Virus record (IMG/VR): IMGVR_UViG_3300022752_000013
Strand: one strand, 5' to 3'
DNA from: a virus
Lineage: Duplodnaviria > Caudoviricetes
DNA: 64,000 nt
Below the pieces are notes generated by a model. That model ran no database searches. It was given only the letters and a program-made list of their open reading frames with translations, and was not told where the DNA came from. Positions 4,695 to 29,554 of the stretch are shown here, in pieces (the first letter of the stretch is position 1; each line of letters begins with the position of its first letter). Both the position numbers and the translations under genes were made by a program.

Positions 4695-4756
4695 CAAGAT
4701 TAGTACTCAAGTACTAATCTTGGGAGTTTGACTTGAAATACCCAAAGTGCTATAAT
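4695..4756 (+). promoter_or_regulatory. 13-bp perfect palindrome followed by sigma70 promoter
   Basis: CAAGATTAGTACT-CA-AGTACTAATCTTG, then TTGACT(4728)-17-TATAAT(4751) with TGn extension. Confidence 0.85.
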
Positions 4757-4781
4757 GTACACATGATTAACCTTTTGGAGC

Positions 4782-6005
4782 ATGATTGTGCCAAAAATTT
4801 GTTGTTTATTAATGTGTCTAGCACTTGTGGCCTGTGGGGGCGGGGGTGGTGGCGGAAGCAGTGGGACTCCTGCAAGTTCTGCATCTATTGCCGTGAAAAT
4901 AATCAATCAAGGCACTGCAATACATAACAACAAGGTCAAAAACTATGCGGTGGGAGATTTAAACAACGATGGACTTGATGATGTGGTAATTGGGGGGTGG
5001 TCAGGATCTGGGACCTCGTATCTTGCAATTATGATACAAAACTCCAACGGAACGTTAACAGAGCGCACCACAGAACTATTAGGCAGCAACTCTTACCCGG
5101 GCAGTGGTCACATTTTTATTTGGGATTTTGACCACGATGGCCATGCGGATATATGGCTACCGGGTGCTGATGATTTTGTTAGTTCTTCTAACAGTCTAAT
5201 GTTGTGGGGTAGCGCCGCCGGAACTTTTAGTAAACAAACCTTCAGTGAATCCATGTCTAGTGCCGGTGCCTGTTTATTTGATCTCAACAACGACGGCAAC
5301 ATGGACATGCTGGTTCGAGGAACCTACAATCGAAATACAAATACATACGGATATTACTTGAATCAGGGCAATAGAACTTTTACATTTGTTGCTGATCAAT
5401 ATGTAAATGGTGCCAGTGCATGTGCAGTGATACGTGATTCTACCACTGGGCATCTGGCCGCGATGCAAGGTGGCAACAGCCAAGGTGCCACTGCGGACGC
5501 CATTAGCATTGTTGATGCAAATCTTGGGTTGATCAAACTGATACCCGTTCCCAGACAAGACAATGCCATGGCCGGAATGATTGGGGTTGTGACAGCAGAT
5601 GTTAATGAAGACGGACTGTTGGATTTTATAACTCTATATGAGGCCTCTAGTGCAGGATTACCAGGACGCAAAGAAGTTTGGTTAAATCAAGGATCAGACA
5701 ATTTTTCCTATGCCTACGCTTTGGATACTGCCTATAACAGCAATGGAGATATTGTTAATTTTGTTTATCAAGGTATACAATATTACTTCTTTAATGGGCC
5801 CAATGGGGATGCTACATTTTACCAACTGGCCAATGGCGTTTTAAATCTTTATCAACGTGATACTTTTTTGAGCATGGCTCGATTGTTAGGAGCCAATCCT
5901 GGTGTAAAAGATTGGAGCGTGTTTTCTGCTACTGTATATCGTGGCAGTGAGGGGATTTATATACTTCAGGAGTTGAAATCGATATACTACACACAAAAAC
6001 TTTAA
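4782..6005 (+). CDS. FG-GAP/VCBS-repeat lipoprotein (beta-propeller-like)
   Basis: Lipobox LVAC plus poly-Gly linker; repeats GDLNNDGLDD, DFDHDGHAD, DLNNDGNMD, DVNEDGLLD. Confidence 0.8.
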   Translation: MIVPKICCLLMCLALVACGGGGGGGSSGTPASSASIAVKIINQGTAIHNNKVKNYAVGDLNNDGLDDVVIGGWSGSGTSYLAIMIQNSNGTLTERTTELLGSNSYPGSGHIFIWDFDHDGHADIWLPGADDFVSSSNSLMLWGSAAGTFSKQTFSESMSSAGACLFDLNNDGNMDMLVRGTYNRNTNTYGYYLNQGNRTFTFVADQYVNGASACAVIRDSTTGHLAAMQGGNSQGATADAISIVDANLGLIKLIPVPRQDNAMAGMIGVVTADVNEDGLLDFITLYEASSAGLPGRKEVWLNQGSDNFSYAYALDTAYNSNGDIVNFVYQGIQYYFFNGPNGDATFYQLANGVLNLYQRDTFLSMARLLGANPGVKDWSVFSATVYRGSEGIYILQELKSIYYTQKL

Positions 6006-6015
6006 ATACACTATG

Positions 6016-6044
6016 TTGACCAGGCGTCAAACATGTGCTACAAT
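6016..6044 (+). promoter_or_regulatory. sigma70 promoter
   Basis: TTGACC-17-TACAAT. Confidence 0.7.
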
Positions 6045-6072
6045 ACATTATCGATTTTACAAAGGAGTTGAC

Positions 6073-6297
6073 ATGAACAATTGGGACAAAGGAAATTTGG
6101 ATTTTATCTTGAATTCAACTGATGCGGATATGGAAGATTTCTTATCCTGGGCATCAGATGAAGATTTAAGATATGCGCTAGAATTGATTCAAATAGCCAA
6201 AAACGAATTGGTTATACAAGAAATTGAAATTCTAGATATCAAGGCCGATGAGGATTTTTCACAAGCACAGGCAGTGCTAGAACGATTCCGCTTGTGA
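6073..6297 (+). CDS. Acidic hypothetical protein
   Basis: AAAGGAG RBS before ATG 6073; ends DFSQAQAVLERFRL. Confidence 0.75.
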   Translation: MNNWDKGNLDFILNSTDADMEDFLSWASDEDLRYALELIQIAKNELVIQEIEILDIKADEDFSQAQAVLERFRL

Positions 6298-7367
6298 AAA
6301 TACGACTGATCGGTAAACGCAACAACTTGGGTATTGGCACCCATTTTGCAAACTTTGCAGATGCATTGAAACGTGTGAGTCACTGGGGTGCCTGTGTTGA
6401 AGAGTTTGATTGCGAAGATCCGCAGAGACTACTGGCCGAAGCACGTATCAGTGAACCAGGCGATATCAACATCTGTTTTGTGAGCATACCCTTGCAAGAT
6501 TACTTTAAAGGTACCAACATTCAATGGGTGGTGTTTGAAAGTACCCTAGTACCACCCACCGTGATGAGCACCATGCTCACCGCAGATCAAGTGTGGGTTC
6601 CTAGTGCCTGGGGTCAATCTGTGCTGATTGAAAATGGTCTGGATCCTGCCCGTTGTGAGATAGTGCCGGAAGGGGTGGATACAGATCGATATCATCCTTA
6701 TGCACCCAGAGTCAACAGTCCTATCTTGACCTATTTGATCACAGGCAAATATGAATTGAGAAAAAGCATCATAGAAACTGTGTATGCCTGGCACCAAGAA
6801 TTTGGCAATGATCCTGATGTTGAACTGGTGATCAAGACTGATCATTTCTTCAACAAAGAAGCCAAGTACAATGAACTCACTCAATGGATTGGGGAACTTG
6901 GCTTGACCAATGTGCGTGTGATGTGGGGCTCAGTACCAGCCAATGACATGGCAGATCTTTATCAACAGGCTCATGTGTTTGTGTTGCCCTCCAAAGGTGA
7001 AGGTTGGGGACTTCCGCTAATCGAAGCCGCGGCAGTGGGCCTGCCTATCATCACAACCTGGCACAGTGCTCACACAGAATTCTTGCAACACATACAATCC
7101 AGTGTGATAACAGTGGAATATGACATGGTGCCGGTTGCTTGTCAGGATTATCAGTTGTTCTACCCCACAACAGATGGCAATTGGGGCGAGTGGGCACAAC
7201 CCCGAATTGACAGCATAAGGCAAGCATTAAAAACCAGTCGACAAAGTTATACATATCTACAAAAAAGAGCCAGAGAAAACAGCCACATTATACGCAACAA
7301 CTTTTCCTGGGCACAGGTAGCAGACAGAGCCTTGCAGATACTGCAAAAACACGGGTTGCTAAAGTAA
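6294..7367 (+). CDS. Glycosyltransferase family 4 (GT-B)
   Basis: DQVWVPSAW, VPEGVD, FVLPSKGEGWGLPLIEAAAVGLPII, NFSW. Confidence 0.9.
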   Translation: MKIRLIGKRNNLGIGTHFANFADALKRVSHWGACVEEFDCEDPQRLLAEARISEPGDINICFVSIPLQDYFKGTNIQWVVFESTLVPPTVMSTMLTADQVWVPSAWGQSVLIENGLDPARCEIVPEGVDTDRYHPYAPRVNSPILTYLITGKYELRKSIIETVYAWHQEFGNDPDVELVIKTDHFFNKEAKYNELTQWIGELGLTNVRVMWGSVPANDMADLYQQAHVFVLPSKGEGWGLPLIEAAAVGLPIITTWHSAHTEFLQHIQSSVITVEYDMVPVACQDYQLFYPTTDGNWGEWAQPRIDSIRQALKTSRQSYTYLQKRARENSHIIRNNFSWAQVADRALQILQKHGLLK

Positions 7368-7445
7368 TACTTTAGTACTACTTTTTAAAAGATTGACTCA
7401 AAACCGTACTTTTGCTATAATAATGACATGTTAAGCAAAAAGGAG
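7361..7445 (+). promoter_or_regulatory. Palindrome + sigma70 promoter + conserved leader cassette
   Basis: AAAGTAATACT-TT-AGTACTACTTT; TTGACT(7393)-17-TATAAT(7416); ACATGTTAAGCAAAAAGGAG. Confidence 0.85.
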
Positions 7446-7451
7446 ATCCAA

Positions 7452-7703
7452 ATGCGACATGTAGCCGGGTTTAGTAACAGCACCCGAATTCGTTTTATCG
7501 TCAACGGTTTTGGTATGTACGGTACCATCAATGACATCTACACAAAAACAGCCACAGTCACACATGGTGCCGCTCTGCGCTTGGCAATCCAAAAATTGGC
7601 TTACGATCGCCGTCGCAGTAGTTTCACAGGTGCCGGTCGCCCAGTGGGTGTGGGCATCACGCATGAAGGCATCGACGTACAAATCACTTTAATGGCCAAC
7701 TAA
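7452..7703 (+). CDS. Hypothetical early protein
   Basis: AAGGAG RBS; in-frame upstream ATG at 7428. Confidence 0.75.
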   Translation: MRHVAGFSNSTRIRFIVNGFGMYGTINDIYTKTATVTHGAALRLAIQKLAYDRRRSSFTGAGRPVGVGITHEGIDVQITLMAN

Positions 7704-7719
7704 TCACAAGGAGCATCAT

Positions 7720-7998
7720 ATGAGTTACTATGTCATTTCTAAAGGTTCAGGTCTTATTGTCAACGACGGCCCTGCCAAAACTCGTGCATACAAAACTTTT
7801 GGTGCCGCTATGGCCACCCGCACTCGTCTTTGCCGAAAGTCAGGTTGGAACATCTCCGAACTCAGCATCATTGCCACTAGTCATTACAAACCTAAAATGG
7901 TCACCCGTACAAATTTGATGACTGGCAAGACATTTGAGGAAGATGTCAACACCCCAAATTGTTGCTCACCAGCATCAGAAACTTTTTGGAGCATGTGA
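7720..7998 (+). CDS. Conserved phage hypothetical protein
   Basis: AAGGAG RBS; C-terminal NLMTGKTFEEDVNTPNCCSPASETFWSM. Confidence 0.75.
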   Translation: MSYYVISKGSGLIVNDGPAKTRAYKTFGAAMATRTRLCRKSGWNISELSIIATSHYKPKMVTRTNLMTGKTFEEDVNTPNCCSPASETFWSM

Positions 7999-8120
7999 TG
8001 AGTGAACCTGTTTGGACCATATCCTGGACCCAGAATTATCTCAACTGGGAACCCATTGAATTACCAATCACAGACTTCTCCCAAGCACAAGAAGTCATAG
8101 CAAGGATCATGTCACTATGA
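7998..8120 (+). CDS. 40-aa small protein MSEPVWTISWTQNYLNWEPIELPITDFSQAQEVIARIMSL
   Basis: Fills gap with TGATG and ATGA overlaps; not in ORF track. Confidence 0.65.
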   Translation: MSEPVWTISWTQNYLNWEPIELPITDFSQAQEVIARIMSL

Positions 8121-8464
8121 AATGGTTTGCAGAAACTACTGACTACAAAGATAACACCCCCAACGGTGTGTACTTGCTGGACGATGGCAAGAGCAAGATG
8201 TATGCGTTCAAGCCAAAAGGCACAGGCACTATCAAAGTATTCAAGAATCCCATCCGCATCGATGTGCGTGGGCGTAAGTTTGCCATCAACTCTGTTCAGT
8301 TTAAAACTAAACTAAAAGAAGAACAGCCCGAAGGGCGTGTGATTGAAGTTACAGGCAGTAAAGGCGACGTATACAAGGTTACCGAACTCAATGGCAACTT
8401 GTCTTGCACTTGTTCAGGATTCCGTTTCCGCGGCGACTGCAAGCACGTCAAGAGCGTGGCATGA
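8117..8464 (+). CDS. SWIM zinc-finger protein
   Basis: C-terminal CTCSGFRFRGDCKH (CxC...CxH). Confidence 0.75.
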   Translation: MKWFAETTDYKDNTPNGVYLLDDGKSKMYAFKPKGTGTIKVFKNPIRIDVRGRKFAINSVQFKTKLKEEQPEGRVIEVTGSKGDVYKVTELNGNLSCTCSGFRFRGDCKHVKSVA

Positions 8465-8706
8465 AGTTTGCTTTTAAAAATTCACCCGAGTGGTTTACTA
8501 ACTATGTGACCGAAACTTATGTGGACGAGTTCCACCAACGAGTAAAAGACATCAATTGGGATCAAACAGGTCGTATCGAATTATTAGATGCGGCCGTGAA
8601 ATTCTTTAGTGAAAAAGGCTTTAGGGTTTACTGCTACAATAGAGAACTTTGGTTTGACTTGGACGAAGACCAAGAGACCACAATGCTGGCTCTACAGTGG
8701 TCTTGA
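8461..8706 (+). CDS. Small protein, divergent member of the FxLxW family
   Basis: ATGA-coupled start at 8461; ends FDLDEDQETTMLALQWS. Confidence 0.7.
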   Translation: MKFAFKNSPEWFTNYVTETYVDEFHQRVKDINWDQTGRIELLDAAVKFFSEKGFRVYCYNRELWFDLDEDQETTMLALQWS

Positions 8707-8707
8707 C

Positions 8708-9139
8708 TTACTTGTAAATGTAGTTGATGGTGTCCGAATTTTCGCGATAGACTCCAGCACCATTCTTTAAATGGAAACGTCGGGCCATCTCGGTCTTGGG
8801 ACTTAGTGTAACATAGGTATCAATACCAGGGAATTCTTGCTTGATCGACTTCTGTGTTTCCACAATCAACTCACGCCCAGACCCTGCGGCGTAACTCCAA
8901 ATTGTATAAAATACTGCAACAGTGGCACTTCCAACCAACTCAGCCAAGTCATCCACAGCCGCCGGAATGGCCTGCAAGAATTTGACACAGGTCACTGCTT
9001 GAGTTTGGTCCCCATCCTTCAACATGTAGATTCGACTGTTGGAGTTTATCCGTTTGGTCATGGGGATTTCAGGACGCACAGGGTCATCCTTGATCAGGGT
9101 TTCTAAGTCTTCTGTAATGGTGGTGATGGTGTGTAACAT
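8708..9139 (-). CDS. GNAT-fold protein resembling the malonyl-CoA decarboxylase catalytic core
   Basis: AVFYTIWS...LI...EFP...VTLSP parallels MCD AIFYSIS...LIK...TLSP; TAAATA at 9169-9174 (minus). Confidence 0.5.
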   Translation of the reverse strand: MLHTITTITEDLETLIKDDPVRPEIPMTKRINSNSRIYMLKDGDQTQAVTCVKFLQAIPAAVDDLAELVGSATVAVFYTIWSYAAGSGRELIVETQKSIKQEFPGIDTYVTLSPKTEMARRFHLKNGAGVYRENSDTINYIYK

Positions 9140-9207
9140 AATCTACGCCGTTAATGTTTATGTAAAGGTATTTATCACAACCTTTGTTACATTAAAATTA
9201 CAGAGTG

Positions 9208-9549
9208 TTAGGTGTGGAGTTCTCGGTACCGAGCCATGGCTCGAGCACGGGCCACTGCCAGTCTCACCTGGACATACGCAGACAACTCATCATCTGGTTG
9301 GTCGGTTGGTGGTGCCACCTTGGGACGTCGAGCCAAACTACTACAAAGAAATTCATCATCTGGAGCATCATAAGGATTGGTACCTTGCAAACGAATGGCA
9401 GTGAATCTGTGTGGATTACTCCGCAATAGTTTGACTCTTGGCACTCGCGGTTGGTGCGCCCGTGTGTGCAAATCTTTAGATACGTGAACAGGCACCTGGG
9501 CCCAGGCGGTGACGGATAATATGGCCACAATGATCAAGAAGTGTTTCAT
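9208..9549 (-). CDS. Secreted hypothetical protein
   Basis: Signal peptide MKHFLIIVAILSVTAWA. Confidence 0.65.
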   Translation of the reverse strand: MKHFLIIVAILSVTAWAQVPVHVSKDLHTRAHQPRVPRVKLLRSNPHRFTAIRLQGTNPYDAPDDEFLCSSLARRPKVAPPTDQPDDELSAYVQVRLAVARARAMARYRELHT

Positions 9550-9591
9550 GTGTATATATAACGCCTTGACCCTGGTTTACGCTGACACAAA

Positions 9592-9613
9592 AAAAGGCTC
9601 CGAAGAGCCTTTT
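9592..9613. terminator. Bidirectional intrinsic terminator
   Basis: AAAAGGCTC-CGAA-GAGCCTTTT. Confidence 0.8.
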
Positions 9614-9631
9614 GTGTGAATCAAATAATGG

Positions 9632-10318: not shown

Positions 10319-10585
10319 ATGCGTTTTAATCCAGAAACTAAGACTTTTAAAGTCTTCAATGCACTCTACAACGGCGAAACTTTGACTCCATCAGAAGCAA
10401 AGAAGCGTTTTGGCGTGGGCAACCTCAGTGCCGAAGCCAGCCGTATCCGTCAAGCCGGTTTTGCTGTTTATAGCAACAGCCGTGTTGCCGGTAATGGTGT
10501 CAAGGTTACAGAATATGTAATTGGGAAACCATCAAGAAAAATCGTAGCCGCAGGCTACAAAGCAATGGCCATGGGCTTGGTCTAA
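10319..10585 (+). CDS. Winged helix-turn-helix DNA-binding protein
   Basis: ALYNGETLTPSEAKKRFGVGNLSAEASRIRQAGFAVYS...EYVIG, an HTH+wing pattern seen in T4-like phages. Confidence 0.65.
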   Translation: MRFNPETKTFKVFNALYNGETLTPSEAKKRFGVGNLSAEASRIRQAGFAVYSNSRVAGNGVKVTEYVIGKPSRKIVAAGYKAMAMGLV

Positions 10586-19094: not shown

Positions 19095-19739
19095 ATGGCA
19101 ACTCTACAACAAGTTTGTGATTATAATCGGGCTCAGGTAAATTGGATCAAACTGTATTCAATGATCGATACTCTCGGCACAACCATGAACGGAAAAAAAG
19201 ATCGGTTTGACAAAAGCGATCTCATTGAGATGGGCATGGACATCTATAGTAATGGAGGAATCAAACTTGTAAATCTTGATGGTGTGGACCACGAACTGGT
19301 AAACTTGCCAAGCGCAAAAGGCCTACCAACCACACAGGAAATGAAGTTTGATAGCAAACTTTTTTACAAAATGATTAGTGTCCAACGTGCCAATCGACGT
19401 CGAGGAATCGAAGGCCGGAAAGAATTGCAACGATCAAATGATCCTGTCACGCTAAAATTGGTCAACACACAGGGAGAGAACAATTACACTGAGTTGCCAG
19501 ATACATACGCAGAATTTTTACTAGCGGCAGACAACCATAGTGCTCATGTGATCGAGGTTGCCACATTGAAGCCGTATTTGAAATTTCCTAATGATGGAAT
19601 CACAGCAGTCAACGTTCCATCAAACTTGTTTATGCAGGTGGTTGGCCCAGACGATATCACTGCCAGGCAGCCCCTGGCAAATTTCAACTACAAACAAGAG
19701 AAGTTGGCATTTCAAAGAAACTTTTTAAACAAGTTCTAA
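19095..19739 (+). CDS. PD-(D/E)XK restriction-endonuclease-like protein
   Basis: DLIEMG...DGVDH...TQEMK arrangement of acidic residues and Lys. Confidence 0.5.
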   Translation: MATLQQVCDYNRAQVNWIKLYSMIDTLGTTMNGKKDRFDKSDLIEMGMDIYSNGGIKLVNLDGVDHELVNLPSAKGLPTTQEMKFDSKLFYKMISVQRANRRRGIEGRKELQRSNDPVTLKLVNTQGENNYTELPDTYAEFLLAADNHSAHVIEVATLKPYLKFPNDGITAVNVPSNLFMQVVGPDDITARQPLANFNYKQEKLAFQRNFLNKF

Positions 19740-19740: not shown

Positions 19741-19788
19741 GTAGTACTTTAGTATTAGATTGACAACGACCGAGTTTTGCTATATAAT
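19741..19788 (+). promoter_or_regulatory. Palindrome + sigma70 promoter
   Basis: TAGTACT-TT-AGTATTA 2 nt before TTGACA(19760)-17-TATAAT(19783). Confidence 0.8.
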
Positions 19789-19794
19789 AGAAAC

Positions 19795-19847
19795 TGTTGG
19801 GTAGGCATAGTGCCTACTAACACTTAACCAATCCTGTATTGTACAGG
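19795..19847 (+). promoter_or_regulatory. Structured 5' leader with two hairpins
   Basis: TGTTGGGTAGGCA-TAG-TGCCTACTAACA and CCTGTA-TTG-TACAGG. Confidence 0.6.
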
Positions 19848-19863
19848 TAAAGAAGGAAAAATT

Positions 19864-20916
19864 ATGGCACAGAAACGCCTCACACGTAAACTTACGGATG
19901 TGATTGCTGAAGTTGAAACTCAACTACGAGCACACTACGGTGTAACCCAAAAAGATCTCGATGCATGGCGAGTCCGTGCAAAGGCTTTATCACACCGATT
20001 TCCCACTAGTTCAATGATTGCTATTGAAGACCTTTGGATTGATTATGAAGTCCAACGTGATGTCTTGCACAAGCACATTATTAATATCATTCGGAAATGG
20101 GATCCACGCATTTGTAGTCCTGGTTCTGCTTGCCGCTTTGGCGGAAAACCTCCGATCTATTTGTATGATGCACAACACCGTACCATTGCGGCCGGACTGC
20201 TAGGCTATACTGAAATTCCGTGTGCTGTAGTAGAAACAGATGAACTTAATTTTGCAAGTTATGCATTTGAACTGCTCAATGACACAGGCGTCAAACGATT
20301 AACTCCGGGGGATTTGCATCGCAATGCCTTGGTGCGTTTTAAAAATGGCAGCGGTGATAAGAAAGTTGTGGATGCCCGCACCATGCAGGATCAATTTGAT
20401 ACCGCAGGTATTGACTTGCAAGACAAAGGATCACGTGCGTCAGACAACTTGCGTGGTGACAATGATTACTTCTTTAGTCACTTTAAGTATGCACAAAAAG
20501 GCATTGAGATTGATGACAGTGGCAAAATACTTTTAGAAATTTTAACTGCAATCAAAGACACGTTTCCACTGCAAGAAGAAATTGATCAAGGTTGCTACAT
20601 TGGATTATACGAACTGCATCGTATCTCGAGCAATAGTGCCAACAGCAAACTACCAACAGGATGGATGAAGGCAGTACTTGAAGCAATCAAGCCCACGTTC
20701 AAGAGTTCCTCATTGATACATACCAAGGCTAAAATACAATGGGATTATGTAAACCCTGGTGCTACTTGGTCAGCCCCTAGTGCTATGTCTAACTTTTTAC
20801 GTGAGTTATACATCCGTAATAGTGGCAAGATTAATTTACCATACCACGGTGAAGGTGCCAAGATGGGTATCGAAGAAGGCAACATTGCCCCAGGCTTGTT
20901 TCCTGAAGGAGCATAA
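19864..20916 (+). CDS. ParB/Srx-fold DGQHR (DUF262/DndB-like) protein
   Basis: Three motifs in order: VQRD, YDAQHR, FELLNDTG. Confidence 0.7.
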   Translation: MAQKRLTRKLTDVIAEVETQLRAHYGVTQKDLDAWRVRAKALSHRFPTSSMIAIEDLWIDYEVQRDVLHKHIINIIRKWDPRICSPGSACRFGGKPPIYLYDAQHRTIAAGLLGYTEIPCAVVETDELNFASYAFELLNDTGVKRLTPGDLHRNALVRFKNGSGDKKVVDARTMQDQFDTAGIDLQDKGSRASDNLRGDNDYFFSHFKYAQKGIEIDDSGKILLEILTAIKDTFPLQEEIDQGCYIGLYELHRISSNSANSKLPTGWMKAVLEAIKPTFKSSSLIHTKAKIQWDYVNPGATWSAPSAMSNFLRELYIRNSGKINLPYHGEGAKMGIEEGNIAPGLFPEGA

Positions 20917-21382: not shown

Positions 21383-21938
21383 TCTTAAAGAATCCTTAGA
21401 CCAATTCACAGCACCGGTGTACGGCAAAACCAAACGCACCGCTGACACTTATCAGACGGTAGCCGACTATTGTCGCCGCAACTTGGTTCGCTTGGTTGCT
21501 GACTATCATGCCGTTCAAAACGATCAACAACTGCTGAGAGAGATCCGCAACGACATTGACACATATCTACGCAGGTATCACGAGTACTGTATCCAACAAC
21601 GTGATGGTATGAAAGCACACTACCACGAAATTGGAGCGGATGAAGAATGTGATTTTGAGCATTTGATTCCAGCGGCTCGTATTCGTGACTTGCTTTTGGC
21701 CAGTGCCATTTCTGTAGAGCAGGCTCTCAATGCACCAACTGTGAGGTTGAGTCGTTCCAAACACATGGCTCTTAAGGAAGCAGGTTGGGCCAGTACCACT
21801 CCAGACATGTGGCAACCGTTTAGGCGTTACACTCAAGTGTTTGACGCTAAGTACGAAACACATGATGGAACACCAATTGACCCCGAAACTTGGACCTTGC
21901 AACAGCACTTTGACTATTTCAAGCATCTTGTGCTTTAA
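21375..21938 (+). CDS. His-Me/HNH-like protein with DUF1524-type EHxxP motif
   Basis: CDFEHLIPA...PTVRLSRSKH; PFRRY. Confidence 0.5.
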   Translation: MINLKESLDQFTAPVYGKTKRTADTYQTVADYCRRNLVRLVADYHAVQNDQQLLREIRNDIDTYLRRYHEYCIQQRDGMKAHYHEIGADEECDFEHLIPAARIRDLLLASAISVEQALNAPTVRLSRSKHMALKEAGWASTTPDMWQPFRRYTQVFDAKYETHDGTPIDPETWTLQQHFDYFKHLVL

Positions 21939-22023
21939 AAAAGTAATACTCAAGTACTACTTTTTGCCCGGTTGACCAATATCTACCAAAATGCTATAAT
22001 ACGGCATGTTCAGCAAAAAGGAG
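21937..22023 (+). promoter_or_regulatory. Palindrome + sigma70 promoter + conserved leader cassette
   Basis: AAAAAGTAATACT-CA-AGTACTACTTTTT; TTGACC(21972)-17-TATAAT(21995); CATGTTCAGCAAAAAGGAG. Confidence 0.88.
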
Positions 22024-22029: not shown

Positions 22030-22260
22030 ATGGGATACAAGGTAATTGCAGACCGTTTCGAAACAGACATGATGCGTCAAAAATATGGCCCCCGCAAAGG
22101 GCTTGAAGGGCCATTCATGTATGCGTCAGGTCGTGTGTTATACTACGATCCCAAAGAGGGCCGGTACTGGGATCCCCGTACTGACTTTTATGTTTCGAAC
22201 GAAGAGATGGATGCTGAACACGGCATTCTTGTGCAACGTCTTGTAGACTTTCAGAGGTAA
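22030..22260 (+). CDS. Conserved phage hypothetical protein
   Basis: KGLEGPF...GRVLYYDPKEGRYWDP; AAGGAG RBS. Confidence 0.75.
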   Translation: MGYKVIADRFETDMMRQKYGPRKGLEGPFMYASGRVLYYDPKEGRYWDPRTDFYVSNEEMDAEHGILVQRLVDFQR

Positions 22261-22265: not shown

Positions 22266-22691
22266 TTGCTTTACTTTGCTTATGGCATGAATACCAATCG
22301 TAGAGGTATGGCCCAGCGATGCCCTGGTGCATTGAGTCTGGGTCACGCTCGCCTGATCGATTACTCGTTTAGATTTGCCATCCACGCTGACGTGGTCAAA
22401 TGCAAAGGCTCCTATGTGGATGGGGTGCTGTGGACCATTGATGATTTTCACTTGAACAGCCTGGATCGCCTGGAAGGTTATCCTCTCTACTACAATCGCC
22501 GTGCCCTGCGTGTGGCACACGAAGATCGTGTTGTGATGGCCGAAACTTACTACATGCAACCCGGCAACTTGGATAACCTTCCAGGGCAGGGATATTTTGA
22601 CATGGTGGTCGAAGGCTACAAGGAGCACAACGTGCCCACAGAACAACTGTTTAATAATGTATACGAAAGTACTACATTTGTAAAAGGTTGA
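22266..22691 (+). CDS. Gamma-glutamylcyclotransferase (AIG2-like)
   Basis: LYFAYGMN, QRCPGA, LDRLEGYP..Y. Confidence 0.88.
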   Translation: MLYFAYGMNTNRRGMAQRCPGALSLGHARLIDYSFRFAIHADVVKCKGSYVDGVLWTIDDFHLNSLDRLEGYPLYYNRRALRVAHEDRVVMAETYYMQPGNLDNLPGQGYFDMVVEGYKEHNVPTEQLFNNVYESTTFVKG

Positions 22692-22741
22692 CCAATAATC
22701 ACCAAAATGCTATAATACGGACATGTTCAGCAAAAAGGGAG
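22659..22741 (+). promoter_or_regulatory. Near-duplicate of the 21937 cassette (degenerate left arm)
   Basis: AGTACTAC; TTGACC(22688)-17-TATAAT(22711); CATGTTCAGCAAAAAGGGA. Confidence 0.85.
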
Positions 22742-22742
22742 T

Positions 22743-23060
22743 TTGAAAATGGAAAAACTTACATCAATTCAGCAAATTAATTCTTCTATCATGTTTGGTA
22801 CCTGGACTGATGTAGAACTTCGTAGCATGGCTGACGCCATCCGTTTTGCACAGGCCAGTCTTCGCAAGCAGGTCAAGCGCCAATTGGATGTAGGCGTTCA
22901 AGTTCGTTGGATCAGTTCCAAAAACCCTTCTGGTGCCACAGGCACAGTAAAAAAGATTGCTATTAAATATGTCACAGTTCGTAGTGACAGAGACGGTGGC
23001 TTGTGGAAGATCCCGGCCAACATGCTGGAGATCGTTGAAGGTCAGATGGTGACAGCATGA
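22743..23060 (+). CDS. Hypothetical protein with C-terminal SH3/KOW-like barrel
   Basis: VGVQVRW...GTVKKIAIKYVTV...WKIPANML. Confidence 0.7.
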   Translation: MKMEKLTSIQQINSSIMFGTWTDVELRSMADAIRFAQASLRKQVKRQLDVGVQVRWISSKNPSGATGTVKKIAIKYVTVRSDRDGGLWKIPANMLEIVEGQMVTA

Positions 23061-23111
23061 ACGTAGCAATGGCCATAATCTTATTAATCGAATCACTCAG
23101 GAATATCTAAT

Positions 23112-23891
23112 ATGCCAGGATTTGTAGATGTATCAAATATGACAGCCCGTGAAGTTCGTATGATGGACCATGCGGCTGATGCTGACGAAACCGATCAGCC
23201 ACGCCGTCAATGGAAATCTCGTGCCAAGCCCGAGGGCATCAAGCACTCAGTGGACAATGTTTGGGGTGCGGCAGTGGCGGCACAACGTATCAATGGCTCT
23301 TATATTAAAGAGACTGTGTACAAGGTTGATCCAGAAATGTCCAGCAATACCGTGGTAGACAAACGTCGCAACCGCGACATCATGGTGGACATTTTGGCCA
23401 ACCCTGCTCAACTCACTGTGGAAGATATTTCACAGGGTCAGGAGTGCCGCAAGTTCTTGCAAAACGACATTACCTTCCGTGCTCTTAAAAACAAACTCAC
23501 AGAGTTTGACGGTGCTGTCAGCAAGGTCTTGGCAGTTGAAGATGAGTTTGATACTGTAAAACACAAGTTGGAATTGGCTGTGGTTGCATGTCTCCCACAA
23601 AGTCATACCCGCAGTTTGGAGCGCCAGGCTGTGCAGGAACGTGTGCGCCAAACATCAGGCGCCTTGATCGGCACCCCTGGTGACAAAGTGCAACTGGACG
23701 TGGAGATCATCAAATCAAACTACAGTCAGCAATGGAACACCTGGTACGCCACTGGCGTTACCCAAGACAACTCTGCTGTGTTTTTTGCATACCGCCAAGA
23801 ACTGGCGAAGGATGCAAAACACACTATCCAAGGAACCGTCAAGGCTCACAGAGACGGCTCCACTCAACTCAATCGCGTGAGCATTATCTAA
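23112..23891 (+). CDS. Hypothetical protein with C-terminal OB-fold
   Basis: IGTPGDKVQLDVEI...TIQGTVKAH...TQLNRV. Confidence 0.7.
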   Translation: MPGFVDVSNMTAREVRMMDHAADADETDQPRRQWKSRAKPEGIKHSVDNVWGAAVAAQRINGSYIKETVYKVDPEMSSNTVVDKRRNRDIMVDILANPAQLTVEDISQGQECRKFLQNDITFRALKNKLTEFDGAVSKVLAVEDEFDTVKHKLELAVVACLPQSHTRSLERQAVQERVRQTSGALIGTPGDKVQLDVEIIKSNYSQQWNTWYATGVTQDNSAVFFAYRQELAKDAKHTIQGTVKAHRDGSTQLNRVSII

Positions 23892-24220: not shown

Positions 24221-24399
24221 GTGACGTACAAAAACGCATGGCCGAACTCATGGTACCGGTTGATCGTCAGATCATGATGTGTGATGATGGCAATGAGTTA
24301 CTAATGATGGCCTGTGCCATGTTACAACGTACCAAAGAATTATTTGACCAAACTTTGGGCGAACAAGGTCGGAAAGAAATGTTTAAGGACTTAATATGA
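24217..24399 (+). CDS. Hypothetical protein
   Basis: GTGA overlap; LLMMACAML. Confidence 0.65.
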   Translation: MSDVQKRMAELMVPVDRQIMMCDDGNELLMMACAMLQRTKELFDQTLGEQGRKEMFKDLI

Positions 24400-24590
24400 A
24401 ATTTTATGCATGGTTTGTAAAACACCAAGATGTGATATCTGGCTTTGTGTCAGGTATTGCGTTGATGACTGCCGCCGATTACTTTTCTCGAGGTGATATG
24501 GCGTATGGTTGTTTGAGCCTGTTTGTTTCGGTAGCAAACTTATTGCTATCGGGTAAAAAAATCGGACAAAACCTTGAGCCAAAAGAATAA
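24396..24590 (+). CDS. Two-TM small membrane protein
   Basis: Two hydrophobic segments; AAGGA RBS. Confidence 0.65.
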   Translation: MKFYAWFVKHQDVISGFVSGIALMTAADYFSRGDMAYGCLSLFVSVANLLLSGKKIGQNLEPKE

Positions 24591-24628
24591 TTTTGGCAAA
24601 ACTACCCAATCTTTTGTGGCAGAATTGG

Positions 24629-24657
24629 TTGACCAAAATCAACCATTCTGTTACAAT
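24629..24657 (+). promoter_or_regulatory. sigma70 promoter overlapped by GGTTGA-N6-TCAACC inverted repeat
   Basis: TTGACC-17-TACAAT. Confidence 0.7.
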
Positions 24658-24717
24658 TAGATATGTTGTTAACAGCAACATTTTTTAAACTTAAAAGCAC
24701 TTTGAAAGGCATTTATT

Positions 24718-25053
24718 ATGGCATCGGAAAAACTCTTTACAGTGGCGGGCACTGCAACAAACCCGGATGGTACTACCAAGGCTCGTTTTGCAAATGACTT
24801 GGTTGCTCGTGTGAAAATCTTGAGCAAGAACAACTGTACCAACATCAACTTGGTTGAGTTGCCCAAGGCAATGAGCAAGTTGGAAGCCTTGCAGTATTTG
24901 CAAGAGCAAGGTATCACCGCAGGTGATGCTGGCTTTGCGGTCGCTAACAAGTTGGCCGAGAAAAGCAAGATCGCCAAGAAGGGCGAGATCATGGTCAAGG
25001 CTACAAAGGCCACAGTCTCTACCAAATCGGTAGACGCAAAAGTCTCTGCCTAA
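24718..25053 (+). CDS. Conserved phage protein with Lys-rich tail
   Basis: FTVAGT...KARFAND...INLVELPKAMSK. Confidence 0.8.
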   Translation: MASEKLFTVAGTATNPDGTTKARFANDLVARVKILSKNNCTNINLVELPKAMSKLEALQYLQEQGITAGDAGFAVANKLAEKSKIAKKGEIMVKATKATVSTKSVDAKVSA

Positions 25054-25072
25054 GCGGATGACTTCCCAAAGC

Positions 25073-25099
25073 AACGGCCCTAAGTGGCCGTTTCTTTTT
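25073..25099 (+). terminator. Intrinsic terminator
   Basis: AACGGCC-CTAAGT-GGCCGTT-TCTTTTT. Confidence 0.8.
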
Positions 25100-25158
25100 G
25101 AACAAAAAGATTGAATTGGTGTAAATAATATCGGGTCCACTAACTGCGACCCAACTCG

Positions 25159-25404
25159 ATGGCAAAATATAACAAGACCGAGAGCGAGGCTCTCTACATC
25201 GTGGTACTCCACGAATCACAAGGCGAACAAAGACTCAAGGACTGGCAAAAACGAAATCCCACTGCCTCAGCATCCATTGCTGGTGGACGTATGAGATTGT
25301 TTGACCAACGTAGCCTCAGCCTGTTCCAGGTCAGTTGGCGTGGCAACTGGGATCAAATAACCATCTGGGATACCTGGCAACGTCGCCATATTTTCATAGA
25401 ATAA
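25159..25404 (+). CDS. Hypothetical protein, distant FxLxW-like motif
   Basis: MRLFDQRSLSLFQVSW; TAAATA upstream. Confidence 0.65.
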   Translation: MAKYNKTESEALYIVVLHESQGEQRLKDWQKRNPTASASIAGGRMRLFDQRSLSLFQVSWRGNWDQITIWDTWQRRHIFIE

Positions 25405-25406
25405 TC

Positions 25407-25435
25407 TTGACAGACCGTGTGCAGGCGTATATAAT
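25407..25435 (+). promoter_or_regulatory. sigma70 promoter, leaderless transcript
   Basis: TTGACA-17-TATAAT, ATG 6 nt downstream. Confidence 0.8.
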
Positions 25436-25441
25436 AGCACT

Positions 25442-25672
25442 ATGTCTACTACACCAATTGTTGTTACTTGGCACCAGGCCCTTGTGTCCGCAGGCAGTGC
25501 CGATTCAGACTCAGTTTGGCAACAGGATCAACTGTTGGCGGAATGGATAGGCAATCGCTCAGTTCGAGTGGTTGCACTGGGCAATCGATCATACGAATCA
25601 ATTGCCAACTTAGAAGATCTACCTCAAGTAGATATTGTCATAATCAAGGAGAAATCAAATGACCAATCATGA
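25442..25672 (+). CDS. Hypothetical protein
   Basis: ORF directly after promoter. Confidence 0.6.
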   Translation: MSTTPIVVTWHQALVSAGSADSDSVWQQDQLLAEWIGNRSVRVVALGNRSYESIANLEDLPQVDIVIIKEKSNDQS

Positions 25673-25844
25673 ACAAATCGTAGCCGCTTACGAAAACTAC
25701 ATTGCCGAAAACGAAAAATTCACTACCAAAGGTGTCAAGGCCGCTGCCGCTCGTGCTCGCAAGGCCCTGCAAGAAATGACCAAGGGTATCAAAGAGCGCC
25801 GCAAAGAAATCACTGCTGAAAAAGAAGCCCTGGCAGCCAAGTAA
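25659..25844 (+). CDS. Histone H1-like Hc1-family protein
   Basis: KGVKAAAARARKALQEM..IKERRKEI; AAGGAG RBS. Confidence 0.75.
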   Translation: MTNHEQIVAAYENYIAENEKFTTKGVKAAAARARKALQEMTKGIKERRKEITAEKEALAAK

Positions 25845-26035
25845 TGCCAATGGTTCAAGTGGTTGAAGACCCAGACAATCCTGGAGAACTACTCCTGGAC
25901 CTTGGTACAGAAGTGTGTGCCCAACTTGGTTGGCAAGTGGGCGACACAATTGAATGGAAAGACAACAAGGACGGCACATGGCTAATGACCAAATCAGCCT
26001 CGACGAATACCTCGCCCAACTCAACTCAAGAGTAG
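25844..26035 (+). CDS. AbrB/MazE/SpoVT-like DNA-binding protein
   Basis: ELLLDLGTEVCAQLGWQVGDTIEW swapped-hairpin pattern. Confidence 0.65.
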   Translation: MPMVQVVEDPDNPGELLLDLGTEVCAQLGWQVGDTIEWKDNKDGTWLMTKSASTNTSPNSTQE

Positions 26036-26511
26036 AAGTAGAAGACTACAAAGCACTAGACTGGAAGTGGGAAGCAAATCCTATCGAGCAGTTAACAATT
26101 AATGGCATTGACCCTCTCACAACCTACAGTAGTGGTACAAGTCACCCTTCATACGGTGCTATACCCAATGTGTCCATTGGTGGTGGTAGTAATATCAGCC
26201 CAACTGTTTGGACTACAACTACTAACAATACTGGCGGATATACTTTTGCCAATCAAAACATTCAGCCCAACAACACAGTTCACATCAAAGGTGAAAACGC
26301 TGATCTCTTGATCAATGAAAAGAGTCTCAAGACCTGGATGGAGAAGGTTGAAGAACGATTGAACATACTCGCTCCCAATCCTGAAATGGAAAAGGAGTGG
26401 GACCAATTGCGTAAGTTAGGTGAGAGATATCGTAAGTTAGAGAAAAAATGCAAGGAAAAATCAGATATGTGGAACAAACTAAAGGCCATGCCTAAACCGG
26501 AGATCAAATGA
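25978..26511 (+). CDS. Hypothetical protein
   Basis: Low-complexity N-half; C-terminal LNILAPNPEMEKEWDQLRKL coiled coil. Confidence 0.75.
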   Translation: MANDQISLDEYLAQLNSRVEVEDYKALDWKWEANPIEQLTINGIDPLTTYSSGTSHPSYGAIPNVSIGGGSNISPTVWTTTTNNTGGYTFANQNIQPNNTVHIKGENADLLINEKSLKTWMEKVEERLNILAPNPEMEKEWDQLRKLGERYRKLEKKCKEKSDMWNKLKAMPKPEIK

Positions 26512-27284
26512 CACCCCGACAAAGAATCAAACACATCACCAAGTGGATCAAAGCCTACGCCCGGAGTGCCAAAATTGACACTTTGGTGGTGGGAATTTCC
26601 GGCGGCATTGACTCCAGTGTGGTATCCACTCTGTGTGCCGAAACAGGACTCAAGACCATTGTGGTTCAAATGCCAATCCGTCAAAATCGGAAACTAGATA
26701 ATCGTAGCAGTATGCAGGCCAACTGGTTGCTGGAACGTTACAAAAACGTCACCCATGTGAGCATGGATCTAACCCCAGTGTTCACATCATTTGAAAAGAA
26801 ACTTGAACCCATTTGCCGAGACAGCACGGACATAACCCTAGCATTTGCCAACAGCCGTGCTAGATTGCGCATGATGACTCTATATCAAATTGCGCAAAGT
26901 TATGGTGGAATTGTGGTAGGCACAGGCAACCGGGTAGAGGATTTTGGTGTGGGCTTCTTTACCAAGTACGGTGACGGTGGCGTGGACATCAGCCCCATTG
27001 GCGACTGCATGAAAACAGACGTTTGGGCTATGGGCAGTGAATTTGGTTTGCCACAAGAAATCATTGACGCAGAACCCACTGACGGACTCTGGGATGATGA
27101 CCGCACAGACGAAGGACAACTGGGCATGACCTATCCTGAACTGGAACGAACTATGTGGCTGGACGAGTCCGGAGACCAGTCTGTAACCAGTACAGAAAAA
27201 GCAAATCTTAAAAAGTATCGAGCAATTCGCGCCAGAAATCTGCACAAGATGGAACCAATTCCTGTGTGCAAAATATCTGAGTAA
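26508..27284 (+). CDS. nadE: NH3-dependent NAD+ synthetase
   Basis: VGISGGIDS, NSRARLRM, VGTGN..E...GFFTKYGDGGVDISPIGD..KT, EPTDGLW...TDE. Confidence 0.95.
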   Translation: MTPRQRIKHITKWIKAYARSAKIDTLVVGISGGIDSSVVSTLCAETGLKTIVVQMPIRQNRKLDNRSSMQANWLLERYKNVTHVSMDLTPVFTSFEKKLEPICRDSTDITLAFANSRARLRMMTLYQIAQSYGGIVVGTGNRVEDFGVGFFTKYGDGGVDISPIGDCMKTDVWAMGSEFGLPQEIIDAEPTDGLWDDDRTDEGQLGMTYPELERTMWLDESGDQSVTSTEKANLKKYRAIRARNLHKMEPIPVCKISE

Positions 27285-27366
27285 ACTACGCCGTTTACAC
27301 CAAAACGGTACCATTTTTGCCCGGTCTGAGCCCGGTTCTGCAACCCATTGAGTAAGTAAAACTACC

Positions 27367-27942
27367 ATGAAAGCACAAGTAAACCACATCAGCGATCAAA
27401 TCGCAATCTGGAGTTCAAGGGCGTTCCGAGTCGCAGGACTTTGGATCATTGCCCTTGCGGTGATCGCTGTATGCAATCACAAACTCAGCGAACTCCGCGC
27501 AGGTGTTGAAGCCATGCCAGCGGGCTATGTCAGCACTACAGAAAAAATCAAGCAACTGGAATGCTTGACTCGCAACATCTACTGGGAAGCAGCCTCGGAG
27601 CCTTTTGAAGGCAAAGTAGCAGTGGCCCAAGTCACAATGAACCGTGTGGCCCACGGAAAATTTGGTGATTCAGTTTGCGGTGTGATCTATCAAAAAAACG
27701 TATTCTATGAACGAGTAATTTGCCAGTTCAGTTGGGTGTGTGAAACCACACACAAAACTCGACCAGTACACCCGCCCTTGTGGGCAGAATCTGAATTGGT
27801 GGCCAAAAAAGTTCTATTAGAAAACTTTAGACTGCCCGGCTTAAAAGGCGCACTTTATTATCATGCAGATTATGTCAGCCCGGGCTGGAAACTGCCCAAA
27901 ATTGATAAAATTGGTCGTCACATCTTTTACGGAGAACGCTAA
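27367..27942 (+). CDS. SleB-like cell wall hydrolase (Hydrolase_2)
   Basis: CLTRNIYWEAASE...AVAQVTMNRV...CQFSW...ALYYHADY...IGRHIFY; TAAGTA at 27353. Confidence 0.92.
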   Translation: MKAQVNHISDQIAIWSSRAFRVAGLWIIALAVIAVCNHKLSELRAGVEAMPAGYVSTTEKIKQLECLTRNIYWEAASEPFEGKVAVAQVTMNRVAHGKFGDSVCGVIYQKNVFYERVICQFSWVCETTHKTRPVHPPLWAESELVAKKVLLENFRLPGLKGALYYHADYVSPGWKLPKIDKIGRHIFYGER

Positions 27943-28256
27943 TGCCTTTCAATCTGCCTGTCACAATCATTGCCATTCGTGACTACATTACCAACAGCCT
28001 GGCAACTCTTTCAGCAGACACTCTGGGCTGGTTGTCGGTCATAGTGTTGCATTGTGCAACCCTGCCCAGTTTCTTGGCCTTGATGACCGGACTGAGCGAT
28101 AAAACTCCGGGTCTGGACATGATCTTTTTCTTGTGGAGTGGCCTGATCCTGCTGTTCCTACGGGCAGTGGTGCTCCGGGACATGTTGAACATCATCACAA
28201 TTGGGTTTGGATTTATACTGCAAGCAGGATTCATGGCCCTGATCCTGTTTAAGTAA
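27942..28256 (+). CDS. Small 3-TM membrane protein (PQ-loop/SemiSWEET-like topology)
   Basis: Three hydrophobic helices; ATLP in TM1. Confidence 0.55.
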   Translation: MPFNLPVTIIAIRDYITNSLATLSADTLGWLSVIVLHCATLPSFLALMTGLSDKTPGLDMIFFLWSGLILLFLRAVVLRDMLNIITIGFGFILQAGFMALILFK

Positions 28257-28754
28257 ATGACCCCTGAAGAAATTGAACAAAAGTTAACTGACTGGATGGT
28301 TAACTTTGTTGAACAGCCTCACCCTGGCTTGGGTCAGTGGGCACCATGCCCTTATGCTAGACAGGCCAGAATTACTAATCAAATCAAGATTGTGCATAGT
28401 GGCCACCAAAGATTGATGGCCACAGTTGAACAACAGTTACCCGAGTTAGAATACAAAGAAGTTGTGGTCATTTGTTTTGATCATACCAAAATTTCTGCCC
28501 TGGATCTAGAAAAACTAATTAAAGTATACAACCAGCAGGTGCTGATGGCAAGAAACTATGTGATCCTTGAGGATCATCCGGATGCTGTGGAATTGGTCAA
28601 TGGTGTTCACATGAACTTTGGTCATTGTGGGCTATTGGTAATTCAACGACTAGACAAACTAACAACAGCAAGTGAACAACTCAAATCAAAAGGCTACTAC
28701 AATACCTGGAATCAGGCTGAACTGGATCAGGTGGTAACATGGCGAAGTCAATGA
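28257..28754 (+). CDS. DUF1415-like protein
   Basis: W..NFVE...PCPYARQA...LEDHP. Confidence 0.55.
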   Translation: MTPEEIEQKLTDWMVNFVEQPHPGLGQWAPCPYARQARITNQIKIVHSGHQRLMATVEQQLPELEYKEVVVICFDHTKISALDLEKLIKVYNQQVLMARNYVILEDHPDAVELVNGVHMNFGHCGLLVIQRLDKLTTASEQLKSKGYYNTWNQAELDQVVTWRSQ

Positions 28755-29179
28755 AATTTTGCAGAATCAATCTGTCAAAAACCAACTACAGTTATTATCC
28801 CGGTGCTGAACGATTTACCTGGGCCAGCGGCCTGGCACCATATGAACAGATCTATCGTGATTACTGTGCCCACAAACAGTTTGAGAGCGTGATGCCTTTG
28901 TTCTTGCAACAGTTTCAAGACTCACACAACGACACACATGTGTATCGGAATGGCACAGATATCGTGGCCTGGAGCCTGTGTCGACGCTGGGACAGTTGCA
29001 ATGCAGAAAGTCTACAGTTTGCCTGGAACTATCATGAACCAGAACTGGAACTGGGCAGACGCAGTCTTGAACATGAATGTGCCTACTACAAACAACTGGG
29101 TTATGAATATTTGTATCTAGGTCAAGCGTCTGAATACAAGACTCGCTTTGATGGTTACGAAGAATTAGGAAGACTATAA
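28751..29179 (+). CDS. Arginyl/leucyl-tRNA-protein transferase C-terminal (ATE_C/Bpt)-like GNAT protein
   Basis: LELGRRSLEHE...KQLGYEYLYLG...YKTRFDGYEEL parallels SLG..SIL.EI...G..Y.YLG...YK..F...E.L. Confidence 0.55.
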   Translation: MKFCRINLSKTNYSYYPGAERFTWASGLAPYEQIYRDYCAHKQFESVMPLFLQQFQDSHNDTHVYRNGTDIVAWSLCRRWDSCNAESLQFAWNYHEPELELGRRSLEHECAYYKQLGYEYLYLGQASEYKTRFDGYEELGRL

Positions 29180-29511
29180 TGGACTTGTATACAATCTGGG
29201 CAGATAAACAAGGTGACATCACTGACTTGGAATGGGTCAACGGAATGAAGAGTTTCTTTGATCACCTAATCTCAGAAGGTAAAATGGAGACGTACAGAAT
29301 TACCAGATGCAAGATGGGATTCCGTAGCATAGCAGACATGCCAGAATGGATGATCATCATGGAGTTTAAGGACATGGGTCAAATGGATTCAGCGTTCCGT
29401 CGTGTGGCTCCACTGGAAGGCGAATTGGAAGTCAAGCACAAAAGTTTCAACCAGTTTGTTTCGGGCAACATACAACACGCCTTGTTTAGAGACTGGCCCG
29501 ATCAGTTCTAG
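29179..29511 (+). CDS. DUF6614-like ferredoxin-fold protein
   Basis: MDLYTIW...YRITRCKMGF...EW.I.MEF...FRDWPD. Confidence 0.6.
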   Translation: MDLYTIWADKQGDITDLEWVNGMKSFFDHLISEGKMETYRITRCKMGFRSIADMPEWMIIMEFKDMGQMDSAFRRVAPLEGELEVKHKSFNQFVSGNIQHALFRDWPDQF

Positions 29512-29554
29512 TACTTTGGTATTACTTGACTAGGAATCATGTTTCTGCTATAAT
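29509..29554 (+). promoter_or_regulatory. Palindrome + sigma70 promoter, leaderless transcript
   Basis: TAGTACT-TT-GGTATTA 1 nt before TTGACT(29526)-17-TATAAT(29549); ATG 6 nt later. Confidence 0.8.

Follow-up and report, generated by a model that had tools for sequence, protein, structure and literature searches.

The 64,000-nt stretch of DNA analysed here (called the window throughout) belongs to a virus of the Caudoviricetes (Duplodnaviria; IMG/VR record IMGVR_UViG_3300022752_000013). Its genes all lie on one strand, many of its open reading frames (ORFs) are small, and it encodes a T4-type clamp loader. The element in question is a palindrome of 16–18 bp, with the full consensus G-TA(A/G)TACT-NN-AGTA(C/T)TA-C, which recurs upstream of sigma70-type promoters. 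When searched as TARTACTNNAGTAYTA, it is found exactly at positions 4701, 7365, 19742 and 21944 and with one mismatch at 29509, in all cases on the + strand. The promoters that follow are near-consensus (TTGACx, a 17-bp spacer and usually TG-n-TATAAT), and the gene start downstream of them consists of an AAAGGAG Shine-Dalgarno sequence and the ATG of a small gene. The features concerned, as read from the sequence, are listed below.

4695 to 4722, unstranded: perfect 28-bp palindrome including the core at 4701 to 4716; its flanks, CAAGAT and ATCTTG, are not conserved elsewhere.
4728 to 4756, + strand: sigma70-type promoter (TTGACT, 17-bp spacer, TG-n-TATAAT), 11 nt past the palindrome, driving the FG-GAP repeat gene at 4782 to 6005.
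7365 to 7380, unstranded: palindrome core opening with the stop codon (TAA) of the GT4 glycosyltransferase gene at 6294 to 7367; the dyad extends over 7361 to 7384.
7393 to 7421, + strand: promoter, 12 nt past the palindrome, driving a small gene at 7452 to 7703.
19742 to 19757, unstranded: palindrome core, 2 nt past the stop codon of the ORF at 19095 to 19739.
19760 to 19788, + strand: consensus promoter (12 of 12 matches), 2 nt past the palindrome, driving a 350-aa gene at 19864 to 20916 through a structured leader.
21944 to 21959, unstranded: palindrome core extending over 21938 to 21965, the left border of a cassette that relatives are without.
21972 to 22000, + strand: promoter, 12 nt past the palindrome, driving a gene at 22030 to 22260 and the AIG2/GGACT gene at 22266 to 22691.
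22668 to 22675, unstranded: right half-site AGTACTAC only, in the 3′ end of the GGACT gene; not a full operator.
22688 to 22716, + strand: promoter, 13 nt past the half-site, with the GGACT stop codon within its −35, driving a gene at 22749 to 23060.
29509 to 29524, unstranded: palindrome core with one mismatch, opening with the stop codon (TAG) of the DUF6614 gene at 29179 to 29511.
29526 to 29554, + strand: promoter, 1 nt past the palindrome; the ATG of the gene at 29561 to 29788 is 6 nt after its −10.

The palindrome in the window is real. In 100 dinucleotide-preserving shuffles of the window, the mean number of exact matches was 0.00 and that of matches with up to two mismatches was 0.32, against four exact matches in the window itself. 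By a weight matrix trained on sites of relatives only, without any window site, the five full sites score 18.7–29.5 bits, and the best score in shuffled windows averages 7.9 bits. The first-pass annotation of this DNA had placed these five cores correctly, and it had added a sixth at 22659 with a degenerate left arm. With 4.1 bits, under the shuffled average, this sixth site is noise as a full operator, and what is left of it is the right half-site within the GGACT gene, which is retained in the two closest relatives. The full palindrome stands at 5 of the 20 strong promoter-like sites of the window. The probability that all five full sites fall before promoters by chance is about 2e-12, as a rough estimate that allows one 30-nt slot ahead of each of the 20 promoters. 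The dyad reaches beyond the core into non-conserved flanks at 4701 (28 bp), 7365 (24 bp) and 21944 (28 bp). Genome-wide depletion of the ScaI site AGTACT was looked for and not seen. At 47677–47711, a left half-site, GTAATACT, is joined straight onto the −35 (TTGACT) of a promoter-like site at 47683.

The same element is spread among related freshwater jumbo phages. Its 18-mer is present in at least 119 IMG/VR contigs of this group. Five complete or near-complete genomes (320–375 kb) have 3–7 exact sites each, distributed genome-wide, and five partial genomes have 2–6 palindromes each at up to one mismatch. The consensus in relatives is G-TAATACT-NN-AGTACTA-C with an A-rich 5′ flank and a 3′ flank of C plus a T-rich run. 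Among the matches listed, a sigma70 promoter lies within 75 nt on one side in 110 of 149 pooled sites. Upstream of promoters, the hexamers AGTACT, GTACTA and TAATAC rank with the most strongly enriched ones in genomes that have the motif, and about 10% of strong promoter-like sites (25/247) carry the palindrome. The preceding gene is close as well: of 32 non-redundant sites, 16 begin with three bases (TAA or TAG) that are its in-frame stop codon, and at most of the remaining ones the palindrome lies within 8 nt of the preceding stop codon. In most relatives a GC-rich intrinsic terminator is found between the palindrome and the promoter. Some cassettes have two palindromes 26–28 bp apart from start to start (24679/24707 in the relative G010, 59305/59331 in G006, and the loci L169, L191, L193 and L221); at about 2.5 helical turns, this distance puts the distal copy out of phase with the −35.

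The distance from the palindrome to the −35 is quantised. In the window, the gaps after the palindromes at 4701, 7365, 19742, 21944 and 29509 are 11, 12, 2, 12 and 1 nt, as had been described at first, together with a gap of 13 nt that belongs to the half-site. For the relatives, sites among the matches listed were collapsed by upstream context into 60 quasi-independent clusters. The gap is 1–2 nt in 10 of these clusters, 9–12 nt in 16, 19–22 nt in 3, 30–36 nt in 23 and 38–45 nt in 8, and no cluster has a gap of 3–8, 13–18 or 23–29 nt. A Rayleigh test, run on an earlier set of 22–30 sites, gave R = 0.80 at a period of 10.75–11 bp, which was matched by none of 20,000 uniform random sets. Phasing is firm for the promoter-proximal gap classes only. 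More telling than these statistics are three orthologous sites that switch class. The site at the DUF6614 gene has a gap of 1 nt in the window (29509) and of 11 nt in its orthologue in G009, at the promoter of the 350-aa gene the gap is 2, 11 or 12 nt depending on the phage, and a third orthologous cluster shows 1 versus 22 nt. Thus, the two spacing classes one helical turn apart that the first-pass annotation had seen are genuine and extend in relatives to 1–2, 9–12 and 19–22 nt, and its description of an operator-like palindrome, symmetric and recurrent, that keeps helical register with the −35 is borne out by the relatives and by the class switching. With the −10 hexamer set at −12 to −7, the centres of the palindromes are at about −44.5, −55 and −65, and more loosely at about −77 or −87 where a terminator intervenes. 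The proximal centres are in the region of UP elements, which the C-terminal domain of the RNA polymerase alpha subunit (alpha-CTD) contacts. Placement on one helical face, at positions about one turn apart, is also the arrangement of class I and class II activator sites.

The pattern of conservation bears on whether the element is read as DNA or as RNA. The arms are nearly invariant, the central spacer of 2 nt is variable (CA, TT, CT, TG and others), the conservation profile is symmetric, and no covariation of the arms was found among the sites compared; together, these are the signature of a dimeric protein that reads duplex DNA. The asymmetric form of the palindrome is found in either orientation relative to the promoter. 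Its commonest arm pair, A3/C14, cannot pair on the transcribed strand, and the preference for A3 in the left arm is plausibly explained by the frequent use of TAA as the stop codon. The palindrome forms the transcribed 3′ end of the upstream gene, and the copies at 7365 and 21944 have an A-run before them and CTTTTT after them, so that it might be imagined to work in RNA, as a hairpin closing that gene's transcript: a terminator, a 3′ stabiliser, a processing site or the target of an antiterminator. Indeed, the copy at 4695–4722 folds stably (−15.6 kcal/mol, z = −5.4). However, it is alone in this among the six window copies, since the other five fold weakly (−4.9 to −8.2 kcal/mol, z from −0.5 to −2.4) and two of them favour another register. 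The core stems have at most two G-C pairs per arm, and only the reverse strand of 4695–4722 passes a scan for intrinsic terminators with a GC-rich stem and a U-run. Because relatives have a distinct GC-rich terminator directly after the palindrome, the palindrome itself is not the terminator. A conserved stem with a variable loop of merely 2 nt is the opposite of what is expected for a protein reading an RNA hairpin, the occurrence of both orientations does not suit a hairpin, and an RNA role gives no prediction of phasing to the next −35. A hairpin function is therefore very improbable.

Other lineages offer a natural comparison. One sister lineage (G003, G011 and G012) is without the palindrome of the window (palindrome A) and instead has GTTAGTG-NN-CACTAAC (palindrome B) before promoters, including the promoter of the same 350-aa gene that palindrome A precedes in the window. 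The gaps from palindrome B to the −35 are 6–8 and 18–20 nt, more rarely 27 and 38 nt, and one orthologous site moves from 7–8 to 19 nt. Palindrome B is thus an independent case of quantisation, by roughly 11 bp and with a different phase. Tandem arrays of two or three copies of palindrome B, 24–57 bp apart, were seen at L338:1108-1213, L354:2115-2154, L356:1275-1314, L361:6171-6220 and L385:5140-5189, in IMG/VR contigs that are seemingly outside the jumbo phage family of the window, and the putative protein that binds palindrome B may come from a widespread phage family. A further relative, G001 (331 kb, 95% complete), has no palindrome A at up to one mismatch. Judged by the 350-aa gene, it is closer to the window than several motif-bearing phages are, and it retains the same downstream genes, promoters and terminators, with a decayed remnant of the palindrome at one orthologous position. 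Loss of every copy with retention of the cassettes is expected from loss of a trans-acting factor. Many intergenic terminators of G001 (L132-L148; for example upstream of 234760 and 40556), and also of G008 and L182, share one stem, TGTTGC...GCAACA.

Two window proteins had been put forward as regulators, and neither is supported. The winged helix-turn-helix protein at 10319 is a basic protein of the Pfam family HTH_39; it is about 80% identical in the motif-less G001, where its presumed recognition helix hardly differs from that in G007, which has the motif. The AbrB-like protein at 25844 is acidic (isoelectric point 4.05; 3 Lys and Arg versus 11 Asp and Glu) and is also found in motif-less genomes. 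Both were rejected because they are conserved in the motif-less G001 and G003. Profiling of window ORFs for those present in motif contigs and missing from G001 and G003 gave only alternative-frame artefacts, a protein of about 50 aa at 7959–8120 and a secreted protein. An autoregulated regulator encoded downstream of the palindrome was considered and rejected as well. Twelve families recur there; the eight most widely recurring, among them a small helix-turn-helix-like protein, are also in G001, and none of the twelve marks the motif-bearing genomes as a group.

The binder could also be a host transcription factor, such as a LexA-type repressor, with palindromes that differ by host; this would be a special form of the operator explanation. 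Such an origin would suit the profiling, which yielded no phage-specific cognate protein, and the lineage-specific occurrence of palindrome A, palindrome B or neither. There is a resemblance between the inner 14 bp of the palindrome, AGTACT-NN-AGTACT, and two kinds of LexA box, the cyanobacterial AGTACWNWTGTACT and the Gram-positive GAAC-N4-GTTC class (PMC3091678), in that a dyad of the GTAC-N4-GTAC type and a similar length are shared. However, position 10 is A in 28 of 29 sites here and T in nearly all cyanobacterial boxes, a consistent difference from a consensus that may not be that of the host. In addition, LexA boxes normally overlap the promoter core, whereas the palindrome always lies upstream of the −35. 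The five complete relatives have no psbA and accordingly show no sign of being cyanophages, and no phage-encoded LexA was found in them. G001, very near to motif-bearing phages and yet motif-less, also speaks against a host factor, and this origin of the binder seems distinctly improbable. The sites of TrpR, Fis, CRP and Xanthomonad LexA presumably differ in spacing or half-sites, and we take them as leads only.

The genes behind the palindromes do not form a fixed set. Among the matches listed, 109 palindrome-promoter sites have a callable first ORF, and these first genes belong to about 55 unrelated families, for the most part of small proteins without a known function, with pairings of cassette and gene that differ among close relatives. 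The small gene at 7452, for example, follows the full palindrome in the window and the GGACT half-site in G006 and G010. The regulon proposed at first, including the lipoprotein, the DGQHR nuclease operon and the GGCT module, therefore gives way to what appears to be a system of reshuffled cassettes. The 21944 cassette is missing from all relatives examined. A single metatranscriptome run contained relatives, as contigs in which transcript starts and ends are not resolvable; one such contig joins 21960, the right edge of the palindrome, via a terminator to 22686, another joins 22717 to 23112, and many contigs start or stop at the promoter core 22686–22717.

Cassettes of this kind have been described in T4-type phages (RB49/phi1, T4/PST and KVP40/nt-1) as promoter-early stem-loops (PeSLs), which were published as mediators of modular gene shuffling (Arbiol et al., 2010, PMC2839356; Comeau et al., 2014, PMC4122927). 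The likeness is extensive. The window phage has the T4-type clamp loader and relatives of 320–375 kb with variable small-ORF regions, and strong sigma70-like early promoters with a Shine-Dalgarno sequence and a small gene lie between small accessory genes. An inverted repeat is located just upstream of the promoter (1–45 nt before the −35), the repeat consensus is specific to the lineage, as is the terminator stem shared within G001, and insertions, deletions and gene swaps separate close relatives. On the other hand, the published stem-loop is an effective terminator, and here an AT-rich palindrome, weak as a hairpin in five of six copies, is separate from a coexisting GC-rich terminator. The palindrome is conserved in sequence rather than in structure and has quantised distances to the −35, and a close relative keeps promoter-terminator cassettes without any palindrome. 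These elements thus look like PeSL-type mobile promoter cassettes with a separable, phased and lineage-specific operator-like module.

This comparison raises the alternative that the palindrome serves chiefly in cis as a boundary or crossover signal when cassettes are exchanged, the role assigned to the PeSL stem-loop, and that it is conserved through recombination or a structure- or site-specific nuclease acting there and not through control of the neighbouring promoter. The position of the palindrome exactly at gene ends, its frequent supply of the stop codon, the variety of downstream families and the contig joints described above are all in keeping with exchange, and unrelated upstream genes often terminate in AAA-AAG-TAA, as though the element provided their last codons. 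However, neither the dyad symmetry nor the quantised spacing to the −35 would be expected from exchange by homology, and a palindrome of 16–18 bp that is AT-rich is short for cruciform extrusion. G001 keeps its promoter-terminator cassettes and genes with all palindromes gone; therefore, the cassette system works without the palindrome. A role confined mainly to exchange is unlikely, and the roles of exchange boundary and operator are not mutually exclusive.

In our judgement, the best explanation, with a probability of roughly 0.58, is that the palindrome is a duplex-DNA operator for a sequence-specific, putatively dimeric protein of some lineages, located at the edge of PeSL-type cassettes. 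In this uncultured lineage of T4-like jumbo phages from fresh water, the operator would mark the upstream border of early-promoter cassettes. It would begin at or a few bases from the preceding stop codon and keep to one helical face with respect to a near-consensus sigma70 promoter. At the two nearest positions it would fill the region normally bound by alpha-CTD at UP elements. The bound protein may then restrain or time the cassettes, either through occupation of the UP region or because it over-stabilises the polymerase, like phi29 p4 at A2c.

The sign of the effect was approached through promoter quality, by comparing the 25 palindrome promoters with the others among the 247 strong promoter-like sites. 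The spacer is 17 bp in 100% of promoters with the palindrome and in 83% of those without it, a TG extended −10 is present in 76% and 46%, respectively, and the mean number of −10 mismatches is 0.12 and 0.27. The sub-optimal core promoter that marks dependence on an activator is thus not seen, and on this point the analogy to class I and class II activators drawn by the first-pass annotation is not supported. Because the palindrome promoters are already of consensus grade, restraint or timing is more probably the effect than activation. CRP acts from centres at −41.5 and −61.5. The CRP-type class I/II arrangement and UP positions resemble the present one in that a dyad site upstream of the −35 keeps to one helical face and has alternative positions about one turn apart; they differ in that the promoters here are of consensus grade and the positions are about 3 bp off those of CRP. 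The phage phi29 protein p4 reportedly binds upstream of the strong early promoter A2c and represses it through contact with the RNA polymerase alpha subunit. It is a possible model for a phased upstream site at consensus promoters, although site sequence, phage family and host are different, and repression would be a matter of analogy here. The A2c work (Monsalve et al., 1996; PNAS 93:8913) is taken as cited in PMC11806353. The stoperators of mycobacteriophages are a further comparison, and these sites are orientation-dependent. Stoperators of cluster A mycobacteriophages (L5 gp71 type) are asymmetric sites for the monomeric immunity repressor of temperate phages, and they likewise occur as many copies of one site across the genome, at gene ends in short stretches between genes; the repressor bound there halts transcription arriving from upstream (PMC9283540). 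In contrast, the sites here are palindromic, occur in both orientations, are phased to the next promoter and belong to a T4-like, presumably lytic phage.

Several points weigh against an operator. Most of the additional sites were found by exact match to the motif, which inflates apparent conservation, and many sites share cassette ancestry, so that the spacing statistics overstate their independence. Where a terminator intervenes, the gaps are continuous from 30 to 45 nt and phasing is loose. The copy at 4701 makes its stable hairpin, and the palindrome coincides with breakpoints of cassette swaps. No cognate protein was found, as neither window candidate tracks the motif and profiling of the ORFs of G016 against motif-less genomes left 161 candidates with no convincing one among them. 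Ten of these were scanned in Pfam without a DNA-binding domain being detected. The most widespread of the 161, a protein of 160 aa, was rejected because the complete genome G015 bears the motif but lacks this protein.

The usual view of early transcription in T4-type phages is that strong host-type promoters are used without regulation and are later shut off globally by polymerase modification and MotA/AsiA-type factors. The operator explanation leads to the tentative proposal, more doubtful than the operator itself, of a further layer of early control in T4-like jumbo phages. Interchangeable, lineage-specific dimeric regulators at phased slots of the UP region would gate accessory and possibly anti-defence cassettes, and the operators would double as left exchange borders, so that regulation would travel with the cassette. 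If this is true, a phased operator at about 10% of such promoters would amount to gene-specific control of accessory cassettes, with which the replacement of the palindrome in a sister lineage and its full loss in a close relative would fit. It would also refine the PeSL concept, by splitting a protein-site module from the terminator. In practice, the motif offers a handle for finding the regulator, predicting co-regulation among genes of unknown function and tracing cassette exchange in uncultured freshwater jumbo phages.

Other features of the transcripts were seen alongside the palindromes. At the strong promoters associated with 12146, 16727, 25442 and 29561, the ATG of the ORF is just 5–6 nt past the −10 hexamer, which suggests leaderless mRNAs. 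At the same spot after the −10, the promoters at 7393, 21972 and 22688 have a conserved ACATGTT, after which come a normal Shine-Dalgarno sequence and another ATG. The leader of the 350-aa gene (19789–19863; about 80–100 nt upstream of the match in L001-L062) shows conservation across most of the 59 relatives that were compared. It has one to three short GC-rich hairpins with CATTGTG or CATGGTG loops right before the Shine-Dalgarno sequence, and these hairpins might act as an operator for translation or as a site of processing. This leader matches nothing in Rfam, and Rfam and tRNA scans of the window found nothing.

As for the phage itself, megablast against INPHARED gave no match to the window, and a protein search of the same database gave just 25% identity to a radical-SAM protein of KVP40-type phages, with no close isolate. 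The 350-aa protein at 19864–20916 has 63 related loci in IMG/VR (56–92% identity, on contigs of up to 357 kb), and window DNA was detected in lake and freshwater metagenomes across many studies. A bacterial relative of a host-like gene was searched for and none was found. In bacterial genomes the palindrome has 12 matches, most of them by chance. Three of the 12 are contigs of the window's phage family that were binned into metagenome-assembled genomes (MAGs) of Haliscomenobacter and Aquiluna; L436 and L444 (Haliscomenobacter sp. MAG EUL_031) and L439 (Aquiluna MAG) show typical palindrome-terminator-promoter cassettes. This reflects either mis-binning or a weak hint at the host, and such hosts fit poorly because canonical −35/−10 promoters and Shine-Dalgarno sites are used here. 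Elsewhere in the window, a homologue of translation initiation factor IF-1 is encoded at 30831–31055 (Pfam eIF-1a, E = 2.8e-21) next to a WYL_2 domain protein at 30392–30826. Finally, the region 34642–38985 contains two large paralogous genes for proteins of 653 and 739 aa, with many imperfect repeats of 51–99 nt. These repeats are rich in Gly-Asn-hydrophobic motifs, the C-termini match phrog_22593, and the two proteins may be fibre-like.

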